This document shows, one piece after another, positions 12,622 through 17,321 of a stretch of DNA of 64,000 nucleotides (its first letter is position 1; every line of letters begins with the position of its first letter). Source of the stretch: Bacteroidales bacterium. GTDB lineage: Bacteria; Bacteroidota; Bacteroidia; Bacteroidales; UBA10428. Below the pieces are notes generated by a model, which was given only the letters and a program-made list of their open reading frames with translations, made no database searches and was not told where the DNA came from. Location of the stretch: NCBI GenBank assembly GCA_016931575.1, contig JAFGEO010000118.1:143457-207456 (forward strand), read 5' to 3'. The position numbers were made by a program, and so were the translations under genes.

Positions 12622-13239
12622 ATGAAAAAAGTTGTGTTTTATTTGGTTTTTATGGCAGGTTTTAGTCTGGTATGCGGACAGATGGTGACTGACAGCATGG
12701 ATCATGACCAGCTTGACTTTCCACAGCTTATTGAACAGGAAAAGGATGCTTCGGCTTCTCAAAAGAGACTTTCAGCCAGTTTTATGCTTGGCTCTTCCTT
12801 TGTGGTTTCCCCCGGTAATTTTTATGGTCCGACAGTATATGCGGCCCCTGCATTAAACTATCAGTTCAATCCCAGGTTTGCGGTCAGTGCCGGCGCAGGA
12901 ATCGAACAGGGGAGTTTCTACTCGCTGTCCAGGCTGAATGACAACAATGCAAACCTGATGCCTATGACCCGGGTCTTCATCTTTACCCGCGGCGTTTATC
13001 AGGTCACAGACCGTCTGAGTCTTGGTGGTACGGCTTACCAGGTCATAAACAGGATGCCCGCTCTAAATCCCTACTCTTCCCCATATCAGCAGCAGTTCCA
13101 ATCAATAGGGGTAGATCTGAACTATAAGCTTTCACCTGCCTTTTCTATAGGTTTCCGGATGAGGGTTCAACACGGAGGCTATTTACATGATAATGAATTA
13201 ATCCCTGCTGAAGGCTATGTTCCCTGGGGAGGGTTCTGA
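12622..13239 (+). CDS. hypothetical outer-membrane beta-barrel-like protein
   Basis: Signal peptide MKKVVFYLVFMAGFSLVCGQ. Alternating aromatic/small-residue strands and a C-terminal aromatic residue (WGGF). Confidence 0.5.
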   Translation: MKKVVFYLVFMAGFSLVCGQMVTDSMDHDQLDFPQLIEQEKDASASQKRLSASFMLGSSFVVSPGNFYGPTVYAAPALNYQFNPRFAVSAGAGIEQGSFYSLSRLNDNNANLMPMTRVFIFTRGVYQVTDRLSLGGTAYQVINRMPALNPYSSPYQQQFQSIGVDLNYKLSPAFSIGFRMRVQHGGYLHDNELIPAEGYVPWGGF

Positions 13240-14378
13240 ACGCCTGACCTTATTTCGCCGATGAACCTATCATAGAAAGGAAAGTCCTTCCGTATCTGAT
13301 CTGCAGTTAATCCGAACTTTTCAAGGCTGTATTCATGGAGGCTCGTGTAGCGTGTCTGCGTTCCGGCTTGTTTGTCGATAGCATCTTTCAGGGAACTGTC
13401 CGGTGTAATCTGGACATGATCCAGGATCTTTGTTATCGTTGGTTTGAAATTGACTCTTAATTCCTCGTATGCAACAAAGAGATAATCCGGCTGATCTTTA
13501 TAGGTAATGTAGGTTTTCTCCAGCCAGGTATAGTAGTGAATGGAAAGTGCATACAGATTTTTGAAGTAGTTTTCCCGTTTTTGAAAGACTTTCCTTATTC
13601 CATGCATATTTTGCTGCACACTCTCTTCCAGTGACATCATGGAAGGAATTGTTTCTGCAGGATCACGGATCAGGACAATGATTTTTGCATCCGGATGAAG
13701 TGCTTTAATATGCTCAATGTTGTACAGGGAAGAAAAAGATTTGGAGAGAATTCTTTTACCCGAATCAAACGAGAGTGCCTGGTATACTTTGCTCAAATAG
13801 GTAATAAACTTTTGCTGCCTGCATGTATTCAACAAGCTGCCGTGAAGCTCCTCCGGGGATTGAAAGTCCTGCCAGGCATGGAAATATATCCAGGATAGCA
13901 TCCCGTCAAGATACCTGAAATACAGGGCGATATCGTCAGTTTCTTCCTGTTGGAGTCCTGTTTTGTGGATTTTGGGATTATAAACCTTGTCCAGGGATAT
14001 CCTGGCGAGCAGGGGAAGGATAGGTTTCATCATCCTTTTCAGCGAACTTGGAGGTAGAATCATTTCCCAAAGAAAATAGGTGCGGAGGGAGGCGCAGTTC
14101 TTTGACAGGAAACGGTGCAGGAAGGTGGTTCCACTTCGCAGGTGCCCTATCATAAAAACAGGCCTGTCGAGTGAATGCCTGCGGATCGAAGGAAAAAAAA
14201 GTCTGTCCAGCAAAAAGAAAAATGAATTCATCCACCCAAGGAGGGTATTAAATGAAAACAGGATAAGGTATTTGGGCTTCAGCCGGAAAGTCGCTGCGAT
14301 AATTTTTAACAGCCTGAAATTTTTTCTCCATTTACTGTTTTTCATACAGAATTCCTCCCAGATAAAAACCGGAACCAA
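13215..14378 (-). CDS. PAPS-dependent-type sulfotransferase (Sulfotransfer_3-like)
   Basis: 5'-phosphosulfate-binding loop FMIGHLRSGTTFLHRFL. Last gene of the operon. The start could be ATG 14345 (MKNSKW...) rather than 14378. Either start overlaps the PKS stop. Confidence 0.75.
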   Translation of the reverse strand: MVPVFIWEEFCMKNSKWRKNFRLLKIIAATFRLKPKYLILFSFNTLLGWMNSFFFLLDRLFFPSIRRHSLDRPVFMIGHLRSGTTFLHRFLSKNCASLRTYFLWEMILPPSSLKRMMKPILPLLARISLDKVYNPKIHKTGLQQEETDDIALYFRYLDGMLSWIYFHAWQDFQSPEELHGSLLNTCRQQKFITYLSKVYQALSFDSGKRILSKSFSSLYNIEHIKALHPDAKIIVLIRDPAETIPSMMSLEESVQQNMHGIRKVFQKRENYFKNLYALSIHYYTWLEKTYITYKDQPDYLFVAYEELRVNFKPTITKILDHVQITPDSSLKDAIDKQAGTQTRYTSLHEYSLEKFGLTADQIRKDFPFYDRFIGEIRSGVQNPPQGT

Positions 14379-15402
14379 AACTTACTGCAATACCTTTGTT
14401 TTTTGAGGTGCCGGAATGATGAAAATGTTCAGAGAGCACAAAAAACACACTTGCGGAGCTCAGGTTGCCATACCGATAGTAGAGTTCCCTGGATGGAGCA
14501 ATTTTATGATCAGCAAGTCCAAGTAATTCTTTGTTTTGAAATTCATTCAGAATAGGTATCCCTCCCTGATGAAATGACCATTCATCGATGTCTGTCACCT
14601 TAAGATTGTTATCCCTGAGGAGCGGATCAATAATCCGGGAACAGGCTATCTGTGGAATGATTTTGTGGATCTTGTCATTGAGTTTGATTCCGGATTCATC
14701 AAAATGCATGGTATCGGTGGGCTCAAATGCCTGGCTAATACCTTGTATTTCAAGAAGGGTTGTGGAAAATTGTTTCCGCAAAACTTCAGGTATAAGGAGG
14801 ATCCCAACGCCTCCGTCTCCGAAAATCAGGCTGTTGATAAAGCTGTTTTTAAAATCAGGGTCCTGTTTGTCCTGGATGATGTTGGCTGCCCATGAACACT
14901 GATCAAAAACATATACGATCGCAGCTTTTTCTGATTTTTGACAATATTCCATGGCACGTTGCAATGCAAGGATACCTGAGGCACAACCATAGGATAATTT
15001 TTCTTCCGGGATAACATCAGGTCTCAGATTGGTACGCGAAAGGATTTGCGATGACAGGTTGGGAAGTGAGCTTCCAATTGAAGAAACATTATAAGCCAGT
15101 CCAAAAAAACCGATTTTTTCAACCGGTATTTTATGGGTTAGTCGATTTACCAGGTTGATTCCCCAGCTGAGGGAAGACTGGTCCTCATGAATCAATACCT
15201 TATCAGGAAGCTTGTCCGGGTTAATGATAAGGGGCCGGTACCTGATGTTGATCCGTTTGACTATTCTGTCTGTTATTATAGGAGACAGAGTATTATCGTC
15301 ACGGCAATAAACCCTTTTAACAATCTCATCGGATTTATAGAGAGGGGGGAGGATAGTCTGTATATCTGCAATATATACCTTATTCTGCTGTGCAATATCC
15401 AT
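14332..15402 (-). CDS. type III polyketide synthase (chalcone-synthase-like)
   Basis: 356 aa. Cys-His-Asn triad contexts SYGCASGILAL, WSFHQGGIPIL and YGNLSSASVFFVL, plus a C-terminal SFGSGF loop. Confidence 0.8.
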   Translation of the reverse strand: MDIAQQNKVYIADIQTILPPLYKSDEIVKRVYCRDDNTLSPIITDRIVKRINIRYRPLIINPDKLPDKVLIHEDQSSLSWGINLVNRLTHKIPVEKIGFFGLAYNVSSIGSSLPNLSSQILSRTNLRPDVIPEEKLSYGCASGILALQRAMEYCQKSEKAAIVYVFDQCSWAANIIQDKQDPDFKNSFINSLIFGDGGVGILLIPEVLRKQFSTTLLEIQGISQAFEPTDTMHFDESGIKLNDKIHKIIPQIACSRIIDPLLRDNNLKVTDIDEWSFHQGGIPILNEFQNKELLGLADHKIAPSRELYYRYGNLSSASVFFVLSEHFHHSGTSKNKGIAVSFGSGFYLGGILYEKQ

Positions 15403-16813
15403 AATTATTATTAAAATTTTCCATCAGAACTGCCCGATAGGGAAACCCCTCTGTTTCAATTTCCCAGATAATGTTCCCGGCATAATCAACCAGCGAGATA
15501 GCCTGGGCTGTTGTAGACAATACCAGTAAATTATGGTCTGAAGTTTGTTCTGCGCTGCCCATAATGTAACTGTAATACTGCCGGGGGAGTATAACCTCTT
15601 TTATCAACTCGGCATGAAAGCTTTGTTGATTAAGCCTGAAAAAAAGTATCCTTGATTGTGAAGCTTCATTGTTGTTGTCAAAAATGATCAGGTCCCCGAT
15701 ATCCGAGAGGTATACATGGTGCTGGCCACTCGGAAGGTATCTTTCCTCAATGTCAAAATCACCCTTCTCCCCGAACTTCCAGATTACCTCACCACTTTCC
15801 CTGTCAATTTTCCATATCTGGTTGTTATGCCGGAATGATACGATAAGATTTCCCCTATCATCTTCGCAGAGACTGTTTGCATGTAGCCAGTCGTTTCTTC
15901 TTACATAGGATACCGGATCCCCGAGGGGATCTGCCACATCAAATGCAGACCACTCCCAACAGACATTTCCTGCACTATCCAGCTCGGTGATCCCATCGCA
16001 GAATATGGTATCTGTCTCATGGTATCCCAGAGGTGAAAAGTCAACAATCCGGTAGTCATAATGGAGCGCATATATGGTGCCTTTTTTACTCCGTATCAAA
16101 TCGTGGTGAAGTCCTTTAGTGAATGAAGTCTCAGCTTTGCGAAAATAGCTCAGTGTGTCGCCATAGAGGTTTATCTCCAGGACTTCATCGCTCTCGGTAA
16201 GAAGGGAGCCATCTTTTGACAGCATGCACAGGATGGTTCCCCTGGAGGTCCACCTGAAAACATCCGGATTTTTATGGAATTTATGGTACCATACGATTTC
16301 TCCATCCCGGTTCAGGATGAGCAGCAGTTTTTTTTCATTTTCCCGCTGATGCACGATAATGAACTCATTGAAGCTGTTATCATGGATTTGGGGATAAGAG
16401 TTGAATGCGTATTTGTCATGCTCCACAGGAATACTGCCGGTTTGGAAAGTGTGGATTTCTGAGCGACTGATCTCACCGGAAAGGCTTTCGCTGACAAGAA
16501 TATAGGAGTATGAAGAGTTTTCCTCAAGGTTTAGTAGAATAAATGAATGATCTGTACTTTGTGCTGTTTGAGTTGTGATGAGCTGTTCTCCTTCATTTTT
16601 CCAGTAAATGATCGAACTTGAAACAGGATCGGATGTAGAGAATGTAATTTTCTTTCTAAGAACATTATTCCTGTAATCATCTGTTTTCAGGTTCTCAGGG
16701 AAGAAACCGGCAGGGACATCAGGGATACAATTGCATGCTTCCCGGTTAGCCAGTTTTTCACAGGAGAGAAGAAAAAGAGGTATTATTGAAAGGAGAAGAA
16801 AAAGGTTCTTCAC
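15380..16813 (-). CDS. arylsulfate sulfotransferase (ASST)-like beta-propeller lipoprotein
   Basis: Lipobox MKNLFLLLSIIPLFLLSC and an N-terminal FN3-like segment. ASST-like motifs DWLHANS, VSFRHNNQIWKID, GQHHVYL and IIFDNNN. The GTG start shares one base with the upstream TAG stop. Confidence 0.7.
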   Translation of the reverse strand: MKNLFLLLSIIPLFLLSCEKLANREACNCIPDVPAGFFPENLKTDDYRNNVLRKKITFSTSDPVSSSIIYWKNEGEQLITTQTAQSTDHSFILLNLEENSSYSYILVSESLSGEISRSEIHTFQTGSIPVEHDKYAFNSYPQIHDNSFNEFIIVHQRENEKKLLLILNRDGEIVWYHKFHKNPDVFRWTSRGTILCMLSKDGSLLTESDEVLEINLYGDTLSYFRKAETSFTKGLHHDLIRSKKGTIYALHYDYRIVDFSPLGYHETDTIFCDGITELDSAGNVCWEWSAFDVADPLGDPVSYVRRNDWLHANSLCEDDRGNLIVSFRHNNQIWKIDRESGEVIWKFGEKGDFDIEERYLPSGQHHVYLSDIGDLIIFDNNNEASQSRILFFRLNQQSFHAELIKEVILPRQYYSYIMGSAEQTSDHNLLVLSTTAQAISLVDYAGNIIWEIETEGFPYRAVLMENFNNNYGYCTAE

Positions 16814-17292
16814 TACTTGAACAGATTAAAATAATAAACAACTTCCAGAACGCCGAATATCCCGGGATCAATCACTCCGGAACGTGCAAAATTAACCTGT
16901 GTTTCAAGGCATATTGCCAGGTTATCGTTACCAGGTATCGGCCGGCATTCAATCCCAAAGGGCATCATGAAATAGAAGGTGAAATTATAGATGTCATCGG
17001 CAGATCCAACATTTATACGGGTAAATCCTTTGAGTCCCAGTCCTCCATAAAGGAAATAGTTATCGCGCTGAAGCAGTTTGATATTGCCGGTAATTTCAGG
17101 GGTGAAGCTGAAGTCGAAGCTTTCTATGCTGTAACCTGCACCAAATCCTGTGCGGAACGATGTAAAAAGGGTGTACTCATGAAACGGCTTCAGGCTGACC
17201 CCGCTTGTTCCCAAGCCGAGGCCAAGCTGGGCACTGGCAGTTGAGACGCTGAGAAGTCCAAAGAAAAGAAGAATAAGAAAAGGCTTCCTCAT
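16813..17292 (-). CDS. small signal-peptide protein, 8-strand-type outer-membrane barrel candidate
   Basis: MRKPFLILLFFGLLSVSTASAQ signal peptide, then Gly/aromatic-rich alternating segments, ending YYFNLFK. The track start at 17316 falls inside the -7 box, so ATG 17292 is preferred. Confidence 0.55.
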   Translation of the reverse strand: MRKPFLILLFFGLLSVSTASAQLGLGLGTSGVSLKPFHEYTLFTSFRTGFGAGYSIESFDFSFTPEITGNIKLLQRDNYFLYGGLGLKGFTRINVGSADDIYNFTFYFMMPFGIECRPIPGNDNLAICLETQVNFARSGVIDPGIFGVLEVVYYFNLFK

Positions 17293-17313
17293 GGGTGAAC
17301 ATATTTGTTTGAG

Positions 17314-17321
17314 CAAATATA
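17314..17321 (-). promoter_or_regulatory. Bacteroidota-type -7 promoter box for the sulfation operon
   Basis: The minus strand reads tatatttg, 21 nt upstream of ATG 17292. Confidence 0.45.

Follow-up and report, generated by a model that had tools for sequence, protein, structure and literature searches.

Four overlapping genes on the minus strand of a 64,000-nucleotide stretch of Bacteroidales DNA (positions 143,457 to 207,456 of contig JAFGEO010000118.1, assembly GCA_016931575.1; this whole stretch is called the window, and coordinates are counted from its first letter) may constitute a self-contained operon for extracytoplasmic sulfation, working by an independently assembled two-step sulfate relay analogous to that of the Cpz enzymes of Streptomyces; from the sequences and from this analogy, the probability of such a reading is estimated at about 50%. 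The operon (13215-17292) encodes, in order, a small putative outer-membrane barrel, an arylsulfate sulfotransferase (ASST) predicted to be an exported lipoprotein, a divergent type III polyketide synthase (PKS) and a sulfotransferase (ST) of the type that depends on 3'-phosphoadenosine 5'-phosphosulfate (PAPS). The relay is the most economical reading because the linkage of the genes, the ping-pong chemistry of ASSTs and the Cpz precedent all agree. The source is a 220-kb contig of a metagenome-assembled genome (MAG), to which the locus tags JW801_14285 and JW801_14295 belong.

Organization of the operon

The operon had been recognised in an earlier inspection of the window (the original prediction), and the four minus-strand open reading frames (ORFs) are all present where it had placed them. 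The gene overlaps that it had claimed, at base 16813, at 15380-15402 and at 14332-14378, can be read directly in the sequence. The TAG stop codon of the small barrel gene (16813-17292, 159 amino acids) has base 16813 in common with the GTG start codon of the ASST gene (15380-16813, 477 amino acids), a junction of the form ttcaagTAGTGaag that is seen here as ttcaagTAGTGaagaac; the ATG of the PKS gene (14332-15402, 356 amino acids), at 15402, falls 23 nt inside the 3' end of the ASST gene (overlap 15380-15402); and the stop of the PKS gene at 14332 lies inside the ORF of the ST gene (13215-14345, 376 amino acids), whose likely ATG start at 14345 gives a 14-nt overlap (ATGAAAAACAGTAA) and whose alternative TTG start at 14378 would give one of 47 nt. 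Overlaps of 1, 23 and 14 nt among four co-directional genes imply that they are co-translated. The motifs that it had listed (SYGCASG, WSFHQGG, YGNLSSAS, GHLRSGTTFLHRF, DWLHANS, SFRHNNQ, GQHHV, IFDNNN and FLLSC) are likewise all found in the translations.

Upstream of the first gene, a promoter-like box on the minus strand (TATATTTG, 17314-17321) matches the Bacteroidota -7 consensus TAnnTTTG. The box is where the original prediction had seen it, at 17321-17314, but the motif occurs in the 64-kb window at chance frequency (42 found, 47 expected) and was dropped as statistical evidence for a promoter; a promoter is supported here only by the position of the box, about 22 nt upstream of ATG 17292 and within a 187-nt intergenic gap after a MORN gene. 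Scans for intrinsic terminators and sigma-70 signals returned nothing above background and are uninformative. The ORF of the first gene can be extended to a TTG codon at 17316; as this codon sits within the box, it was rejected as a start, and the gene most likely begins at ATG 17292 (MRKPFLILLFF...ASA/QL, the slash marking the predicted cleavage site).

A divergent type III polyketide synthase

By sequence and by model, the third protein of the operon is a divergent type III PKS and not a FabH. At the level of Pfam domains the margin is narrow, with Chal_sti_synt_C matching at 1.3e-10 (41.9 bits, cut-off 27) and ACP_syn_III_C at 4.4e-9 (36.8 bits). Of the two Chal_sti_synt profiles named by the original prediction, the C-terminal one thus matches and the N-terminal one (Chal_sti_synt_N, PF00195) does not, neither in the window PKS nor in its 26 closest relatives. 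PF00195 is found in more distant alkylresorcinol synthases of the same search, and its absence from the window PKS and these 26 relatives marks a divergent clade. The best NCBIfam match is DpgA with 60 bits, compared with 33 bits for FabH, both scores lying far below the cut-off.

When a profile built from 25 members of the clade was compared with the PDB, the best 60 matches were all type III PKSs, with PKS18 first at 7.7e-26; the AlphaFold2 model of the window protein (pLDDT 89.9) gave a similar picture, the top 50 Foldseek matches in the PDB all being type III PKSs with TM-scores of up to 0.82. The Cys-His-Asn triad (C140, H278 and N313) is invariant in the 25 clade members and aligns to the GCA, HPGG and GNM motifs of PKS18. 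Profile and fold both prefer a type III PKS, and the protein does not score as the ordinary FabH that the original prediction had held up as the outcome that would count against it. With 23-30% identity to canonical bacterial type III PKSs, the window PKS stands in a small clade of its own. Its neighbours in the Foldseek search include the M. marinum PKS, PKS18, PKS11, CylI and ArsC, enzymes that produce long-chain alkylpyrones and alkylresorcinols.

Two sulfotransferases on either side of the inner membrane

The product of the second gene was tested against the families PF05935 and PF14269 and belongs by profile to the PAPS-independent ASSTs, with Arylsulfotrans matching at 2.1e-33 (116 bits, cut-off 24.2) and Arylsulfotran_2 at 8.9e-20 (71.7 bits, cut-off 27). 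The lack of any match to an ASST family, which had been named in advance as a reason to give up the proposal, was not observed; the match is strong and the catalytic histidine is kept. Behind a lipoprotein signal, an N-terminal domain of the FN3 kind precedes the ASST propeller, which makes up the C-terminal part of the protein. In a comparison of the subfamily profile with the PDB, entry 9KF4 (‘Sulfotransferase’) matches at 1.5e-35 and E. coli AssT (3ELQ) at 2.4e-15. The entries 9KF4 and 9KF6 (472 amino acids), named only ‘Sulfotransferase’, are the nearest solved structure and much nearer than E. coli AssT; a publication on 9KF4 was not found in the literature searched. In the profile alignment to 3ELQ and to the H436N mutant 4P04, the AssT nucleophile H436 aligns to H365 of the window protein, which is invariant, and H252, H356 and R374 align to H236, H311 and the arginine of SFRH, the last of which is not conserved throughout the subfamily.

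At its N-terminus the ASST carries a lipoprotein signal (MKNLFLLLSIIPLFLLS followed by Cys), and this residue, Cys18, is at least 90% conserved in the subfamily alignment. Judged by inspection and with a regular expression, a lipobox is present in at least 80 of the 150 nearest ASST cluster representatives, the others having signal peptidase I (SPI) signals or long forms. On this evidence the ASST is predicted to leave the cytoplasm as a lipid-anchored protein, as had been proposed. Since the lipobox is widespread in the subfamily and BvASST of Phocaeicola vulgatus is likewise a predicted lipoprotein of the signal peptidase II type (PMC12809581), export is typical of these enzymes and nothing special to this locus.

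The sulfotransferase encoded by the last gene is of a different kind. It matches Sulfotransfer_3 at 6.1e-21 (76 bits, cut-off 27) and Sulfotransfer_1 at 2.2e-13, and its best match in the PDB is 2ZQ5 (2.2e-7), which we take to be M. tuberculosis Stf1; relatives carry the JGI label ‘omega-hydroxy-beta-dihydromenaquinone-9 sulfotransferase’ (Stf3, the orthology term for sulfomenaquinone). The PAPS-binding loop that had been claimed for this gene (GHLRSGTTFLHRF) is present, and across 28 diverse members the 5'-phosphosulfate loop GxxRSGTT (G67 and R70-S71-G72-T73-T74) is invariant, as are H127, K202, R227 and S235, the residues that bind the 3'-phosphate included. By sequence, the ST is a PAPS-dependent enzyme of the Sulfotransfer_3 or mycobacterial Stf type, predicted to be cytoplasmic; neither the PKS nor the ST carries a signal peptide. 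The N-terminal region of the ST is conserved and hydrophobic-amphipathic, with a maximal 19-residue hydropathy of 1.52 at residues 27-45, a borderline value for a membrane helix.

The small barrel protein

The first gene had been described as coding for a barrel-like protein with a signal peptide, and this description holds: inspection reveals a cleavable SPI-type signal peptide (MRKPFLILLFFGLLSVSTASA/QL, that is …STASA/QL), and the mature protein is modelled as an eight-stranded outer-membrane barrel resembling OmpX and OmpA. Searches of Pfam and NCBIfam gave no match even at E<=10, and homologues are rare, with only 10 found among 5.8e9 proteins, none of which falls below 55% identity to the window protein in the aligned region; in all of three homologue contigs that were looked up and are long enough to show the next gene, the gene lies directly upstream of an ASST gene. 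The AlphaFold2 model, built from this shallow 10-sequence alignment, has eight strands and a pLDDT of 72.7, and its top Foldseek matches are OmpX, Ail, the transmembrane domain of OmpA, NspA and OprF-N (E 6e-5 to 1e-3, TM 0.5-0.58), with OmpX 1QJ9 at E 6.3e-5 and TM 0.56. The model thus lends moderate support to the assignment as an eight-stranded outer-membrane beta-barrel. As for the beta-signal, the C-terminus reads …VVYYFNLFK in the window, …YYFN followed by 2-5 residues with K or E at or near the end in the homologues, and …SYYFNR in Marivirga; aromatic residues stand 1-3 positions before the end and the last residue is non-aromatic.

In the homologue alignment S55, I56, E57, F59, D60, T64, P65, E66, Y82 and R92 are invariant. 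The block formed by residues 51-66 (GAGYSIESFD…TPE), together with R92, is strongly polar, which is unusual for a purely structural eight-stranded barrel; judged from these sequences, it might mark a specific binding or catalytic site.

Conservation of the gene block and its surroundings

The arrangement of the four genes goes beyond chance: the same gene order recurs in loci L001-L003, on the P0004 contig and in Marivirga atlantica (L075), and in part in L072, which has the first three genes in the same order on a contig that stops inside the PKS (handles of this kind denote loci and contigs of the analysis). At 57-69% PKS identity the block is present in at least four metagenomic relatives and in two distinct chromosomal neighbourhoods: the P0004 contig and L068 have the RelA/SpoT flank in common with the window, and the block of L001-L003 sits in the other neighbourhood, among Hdr-like genes. 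The ST-anchored look-up led to Marivirga atlantica, which belongs to the Cytophagales and is in culture; here the barrel and ASST genes again overlap by 1 nt and the ASST has the lipobox ITSS/C, at identities to the window proteins of 37% for the barrel, 33% for the ASST, 28% for the PKS and 43% for the ST; the four RefSeq entries (WP_201917907 for the barrel, WP_201917905 for the ASST, WP_201917903 for the PKS and WP_201917901 for the ST) are all annotated as hypothetical. The conservation of the neighbourhood within Bacteroidota that the original prediction had proposed to look for is thus found in two orders, Bacteroidales and the order of Marivirga.

Around the operon lie genes for RelA/SpoT, a thioesterase, a short-chain dehydrogenase/reductase, the MORN protein, an FAD protein, a histidine kinase and DnaE (DNA polymerase III alpha), none of which points to an antibiotic cluster, as had been remarked before. 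At the 5' edge of the operon, the close relatives L072 (1316-4698) and the P0004 contig have a DUF6057 membrane protein (about 611-620 amino acids) and a PD40-repeat, beta-propeller-like lipoprotein (about 516 amino acids) between the MORN and barrel genes. In the window the MORN gene adjoins the operon and the pair is missing, an insertion/deletion difference at this edge. As L001 and L075 lack it too, the pair was considered as part of the module and rejected. At the other end, an ORF of 205 amino acids on the plus strand (12622-13239) runs towards the ST gene, the last 25 nt of which it overlaps; it has a signal peptide (MKKVVFYLVFMAGFSLVCGQ), a classic outer-membrane C-terminus (…GYVPWGGF) and no Pfam family. 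This ORF was rejected as a fifth member: it is kept only alongside the RelA/SpoT flank (P0004 contig, L068) and not in L001 or L075, and it shows no relationship to the small barrel.

Ketosynthase-sulfotransferase pairs and their ASST neighbours

Two surveys were made, an ST-anchored census of 80 metagenome loci and a PKS-anchored census of 61 species-representative genomes in GTDB. Taken alone, the PKS-anchored census (a word-index search and a GTDB pattern scan) made the trio of ASST, PKS and ST seem confined to a few contigs; it missed Marivirga and all partners of the FabH-like kind, and anchoring on the ST corrected the picture. A class III ketosynthase (KS-III, or KS) gene stands immediately upstream of the ST gene in 56 of the 80 metagenome loci, 10 times as a PKS of the window type and 46 times as a FabH/OleA-like enzyme, two unrelated clades; among the 65 ST loci with enough upstream sequence, only 15 lack a KS. 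In the 61 genomes, which belong to many phyla, an ST lies immediately downstream of the PKS in 10 (Poribacteria, Spirochaetales, Myxococcales and others) and an ASST close to it in only 2.

The pairs with a FabH/OleA-like (ACP_syn_III type) KS (L092, L094-L104, L106-L126, L128-L132, L134-L135, L137-L139, L141, L145 and L150) come mostly from GC-rich soil contigs. A two-gene module of such a KS and an Stf-type ST was not found described in the literature searches, which targeted the trio.

Genes for PAPS synthesis (Cys genes) occur near the ST in 4 of the 80 metagenome loci, and the order PKS-ST-CysC-CysD-CysN is found in the metagenome loci L077, L088 and L093 and in the genome loci L013 and L060. 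These five loci represent complete sulfation cassettes outside actinomycetes, comparable to the adp cluster discussed below; in L060 (6518-12761) a PiT-like permease is encoded upstream of the cassette and in L013 (10007-14285) a membrane protein between ST and CysC.

An ASST gene is found within 8 kb of the ST in 15 of the 80 loci, and in 6 of these 15 it is the gene just before the KS and read in the same direction, as in the window. Altogether, an ASST joins a KS-ST pair or an ST in at least eight architectures or lineages (the window type, Marivirga, L074/L094, L006, L059, L119/L135, L121/L150 and L141), and stands beside an ST without a KS in L086 and L148/L151-153; wherever an N- or C-terminus is visible, the ASSTs of these architectures are lipoproteins or carry a tail of the type IX secretion system (T9SS). 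L059 is a Myxococcales MAG with an ASST beside the KS-ST pair, and L119 and L135 (GC about 0.6) have a lipoprotein ASST, then the KS, then the ST.

Several of these loci have features of their own. In L074 (117-11778, a Bacteroidales MAG), SusC/SusD-like genes and two lipoprotein genes precede a FabH-like KS and the ST, and the convergent ASST and PCMD-domain protein both end in T9SS C-terminal sorting domains, by which this ASST is predicted to be secreted or surface-attached and not lipid-anchored. In the GC-rich locus L006 (2357-10150) the PKS-ST pair is divergent from genes for a UbiA-family prenyltransferase, an FAD-dependent oxidoreductase, a 637-residue protein without a family and an ASST lipoprotein (…LLLG/C), a gene set that suggests a prenylated polyketide variant. 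In L148 and L151-L153 (GC 0.37-0.39), two or three ASST paralogues flank the ST and no KS is nearby, so that here the association of ST and ASST is independent of a polyketide synthase. Stand-alone PKS genes of the window clade, with neither ST nor ASST, occur in chemolithotrophs, adjoining desulfoferrodoxin and leucyl aminopeptidase genes in Persephonella (loci of Persephonella/Aquificota: L004, L007, L020, L024, L034 and L038) and gltX in Sulfuricurvum (L042-L044, L048 and L053).

The proposed relay and its alternatives

ASSTs work by a ping-pong mechanism, in which the sulfuryl group is passed on through a catalytic histidine. In the proposed relay, the type III PKS would build a small phenol-like polyketide in the cytoplasm, most likely an alkyl-tailed 4-hydroxy-2-pyrone or resorcinol whose tail comes from a fatty-acyl starter, and the Stf-type ST would sulfate the acidic hydroxyl of this polyketide from PAPS, a step favoured by the linkage of the two genes. 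The sulfated polyketide would then have to reach the periplasm or the outer membrane; there the ASST lipoprotein would load the sulfuryl group on H365, pass it to an acceptor in the envelope or outside the cell and free the polyketide. More speculatively, the co-translated barrel could be a partner or an anchor of the ASST at the outer membrane, or let a hydrophobic donor or acceptor pass in the manner of OmpW/AlkL-type barrels.

The steps of this scheme differ in how well they are supported. The sequence record strongly indicates that the ST acts on the product of the KS and takes the sulfate from PAPS, because the two genes are immediately adjacent across phyla, two KS clades are combined with one ST family, and PAPS cassettes are attached to some of the pairs. 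The hand-over of the sulfated product to the exported ASST draws moderate support from the translational coupling of the genes, from the conservation of the block between Bacteroidales and Marivirga and from the recurrence of exported ASSTs in at least eight architectures, alongside the analogy with Cpz. The nearest structural relatives of the PKS use long acyl starters, which makes it plausible that the donor is amphiphilic. 4-Hydroxy-2-pyrones are also made by some FabH-like KSs, among them MxnB, PpyS and PyrS, and 4V2P, the entry for MxnB, is one of the PDB matches; that FabH-like enzymes are pyrone makers could explain why the KS clades are interchangeable, both providing the same kind of donor.

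Several observations weigh against the relay. Neither in the operon nor beside it is there a gene for a transporter or flippase, which leaves the crossing of the inner membrane by an anionic sulfate ester without explanation, and no genes that would make an acceptor are linked to it. No PAPS-synthesis genes were seen among the ORFs of the 64-kb window, of which those outside 9-20 kb were judged by inspection of their N-termini and not by profile search. The ST is not of the Cpz8 family and the PKS is unlikely to be an orthologue of Cpz6, so that the Cpz6/Cpz8/Cpz4 precedent serves as an analogy only. The metagenome loci of the census are not phylogenetically independent, many of them being soil contigs with a GC content of 0.62-0.68, and the PKS clade occurs alone in Persephonella, Sulfuricurvum, cyanobacteria and Flavobacteriaceae. 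Finally, 47 of the 56 metagenome KS-ST pairs and about 9 of the 10 genome pairs have no ASST within 8-10 kb, which means that in many organisms the sulfated product is probably an end product.

This last point leads to the chief alternative, in which a sulfated alkylpyrone or alkylresorcinol is the product itself, an envelope lipid or a signal comparable to the sulfated adipostatins or to mycobacterial sulfomenaquinone, and the ASST and the barrel remodel, recycle or redistribute its sulfate or act secondarily. Besides the missing ASSTs, the PKS-ST-CysCDN cassettes speak for it, as they resemble the adp cluster, which makes sulfated resorcinols as its end products (PMC12135136); the fold of the PKS, nearest to synthases of long-chain alkylpyrones and alkylresorcinols, the membership of the ST in the Stf family with the sulfomenaquinone label of its relatives, and the hydrophobic N-terminus of the ST also fit. 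What it leaves unexplained is an exported ASST that is coupled upstream of the PKS and kept from Bacteroidales to Marivirga, as well as the recurrence of ASSTs with two KS clades and with the ST alone; moreover, an ASST that met such an aryl sulfate would, by its mechanism, strip the sulfate from it. On balance this alternative is considered less likely than the relay, though it is the strongest of its rivals.

The same gene set, topology and ASST chemistry as in the relay would equally serve a pro-drug or self-protection scheme, in which a pyrone or resorcinol with membrane-active or antibacterial properties is sulfated in the cytoplasm, and so disarmed and solubilised for export, the surface ASST unmasks it by transfer onto any phenol, and the desulfated polyketide is the functional product. 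Violapyrones (presulficidins) are indeed antibacterial (PMC4924298), and ASSTs are promiscuous toward acceptors (PMC13426309, PMC12809581). Against this stand the lack of linked resistance or export genes and the position of the operon, vertically conserved among housekeeping genes such as those for RelA/SpoT and DNA polymerase III alpha. The usual enzyme to unmask a sulfate ester, besides, would be a sulfatase. The scheme is accordingly regarded as improbable.

Still less probable is a flow of sulfate in the reverse direction, with the exported ASST transferring sulfate from environmental aryl sulfates onto an exported unsulfated polyketide or other phenols, and the ST acting on a separate substrate. 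BvASST of Phocaeicola vulgatus does use host-derived phenolic sulfates as donors in vitro (PMC12809581), but the ST is the tightest and most widely linked partner of the KS, being immediately downstream of it in 56 of the 80 loci, and is also found together with PAPS-synthesis genes, which makes a separate ST substrate unlikely. That the four genes are mere neighbours without a shared function, for which one could cite the annotation of all four Marivirga proteins as hypothetical, is hardly credible given that the reading frames overlap, that order and overlaps are kept at 28-43% identity across orders, that the block occurs in two chromosomal contexts and that 15 of 80 loci have an ASST no more than 8 kb from the ST, compared with about 0.4% by a rough estimate for a single-copy gene in a 4-Mb genome.

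Significance

For the widespread exported ASSTs, the physiological sulfo donors and mostly also the roles are stated to be unknown in the recent literature (PMC12809581, December 2025; PMC13426309, July 2026), the caprazamycin system of Streptomyces being the single exception with a known donor. The operon of the window links an exported ASST to a cytoplasmic pair of donor-making enzymes in a Gram-negative lineage and outside an antibiotic cluster, and such a link recurs across phyla with parts that are not orthologous, which suggests that self-made polyketide sulfates may be a general answer to the question of the ASST donor. If the relay is real, it provides a route to sulfate molecules of the envelope or of the exterior in a compartment that PAPS does not reach, and the very common KS-III-sulfotransferase gene pair, still annotated as hypothetical, gains a first functional context. 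In its broadest form, which is put forward tentatively and is more doubtful than the relay in the window itself, the idea is that KS-III, Stf-type ST and exported ASST together form a general, independently assembled means of carrying activated sulfate across the inner membrane, with pyrone or phenol sulfates as a periplasmic equivalent of PAPS, self-made polyketide sulfates as the long-sought ASST donors and, in Bacteroidota, the barrel extending the pathway to the surface. The hypothesis is directly testable because the cultured Marivirga atlantica carries the same four genes (WP_201917901/903/905/907).

Comparison with known systems

Searches of the accessible literature for a type III PKS/ST/ASST system in Bacteroidota, or for sulfated pyrone clusters, turned up no relevant description, and the systems that come closest each share part of the gene set. 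The nearest solved structures to the window PKS by profile and by fold, PKS18, PKS11, CylI and ArsC, have the catalytic triad in common with it; their sequence identity to it is only 17-20%, and the window protein differs in an N-terminal domain that Pfam does not recognise. We know of none among these four that is coupled to a sulfotransferase and an ASST. On the side of the ASSTs, BvASST (BVU_0583; PMC12809581) and AssT of E. coli CFT073 (3ELQ) belong to the same family as the window ASST, use a histidine nucleophile and are exported, but neither has a known physiological donor or is linked to genes that would make one; AssT, to which the window ASST is distantly related (profile E 2.4e-15), is linked to DsbL/DsbI (PMC13426309).

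The adp cluster of Streptomyces davaonensis combines AdpPKS, AdpST and a PAPS cassette, its end products being sulfated resorcinols, and AdpST clusters only with a few actinomycete STs (PMC12135136). As in the window, a type III PKS adjoins a PAPS-dependent ST, and CysC, CysD and CysN are present in the relatives of the window pair listed above (L013, L060, L077, L088 and L093). By comparison, the adp cluster lacks an ASST, whereas the window operon lacks PAPS genes and has an ASST and a barrel.

The closest parallel is provided by Cpz6, Cpz8 and Cpz4 of Streptomyces sp. MK730-62F2, a system for the two-step sulfation of caprazamycins in which, as far as the work of Tang et al. 2013 is reported in PMC4257720, PMC4924298 and PMC6731281, triketide pyrones sulfated from PAPS are genuine ASST donors. 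In both systems a type III PKS, a PAPS-dependent ST and a PAPS-independent ASST are clustered, and the predicted logic runs from PAPS through a polyketide sulfate to an acceptor. The original prediction had spoken of exactly the same three enzyme classes, which is correct at the level of classes and not at that of families. The sequence of Cpz8 was reconstructed from its codon-optimised form in the supplement of PMC6731281, with errors of the machine reading repaired by means of the homologue LipE; the resulting protein of 212 amino acids matches Pfam Sulfotransfer_4 at 3.3e-64, and the family profile of the window ST does not match it at E<=10, the window enzyme being Sulfotransfer_3/Stf-like. 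Cpz6, placed here by its description in the literature, is reported to be 53% identical to VioA, which resembles tetrahydroxynaphthalene synthase (PMC4924298), whereas the window PKS falls in a small separate clade without Chal_sti_synt_N; to judge from these sequences, orthology of the two is unlikely. With Cpz8 in Sulfotransfer_4, the window ST in Sulfotransfer_3 and the PKSs in separate clades, the relation is one of analogy and not of orthology. Furthermore, the Cpz trio lies in the antibiotic cluster of its final acceptor, which the window operon does not, and the same block recurs next to the other flank in L001; the Gram-negative host, the lipoprotein nature of the ASST, the outer-membrane barrel and the translationally coupled order ASST-PKS-ST are found in the window system only. 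By analogy, it is thus plausible that this system is an independent assembly that resembles Cpz, set in a diderm envelope and equipped with an additional outer-membrane component.

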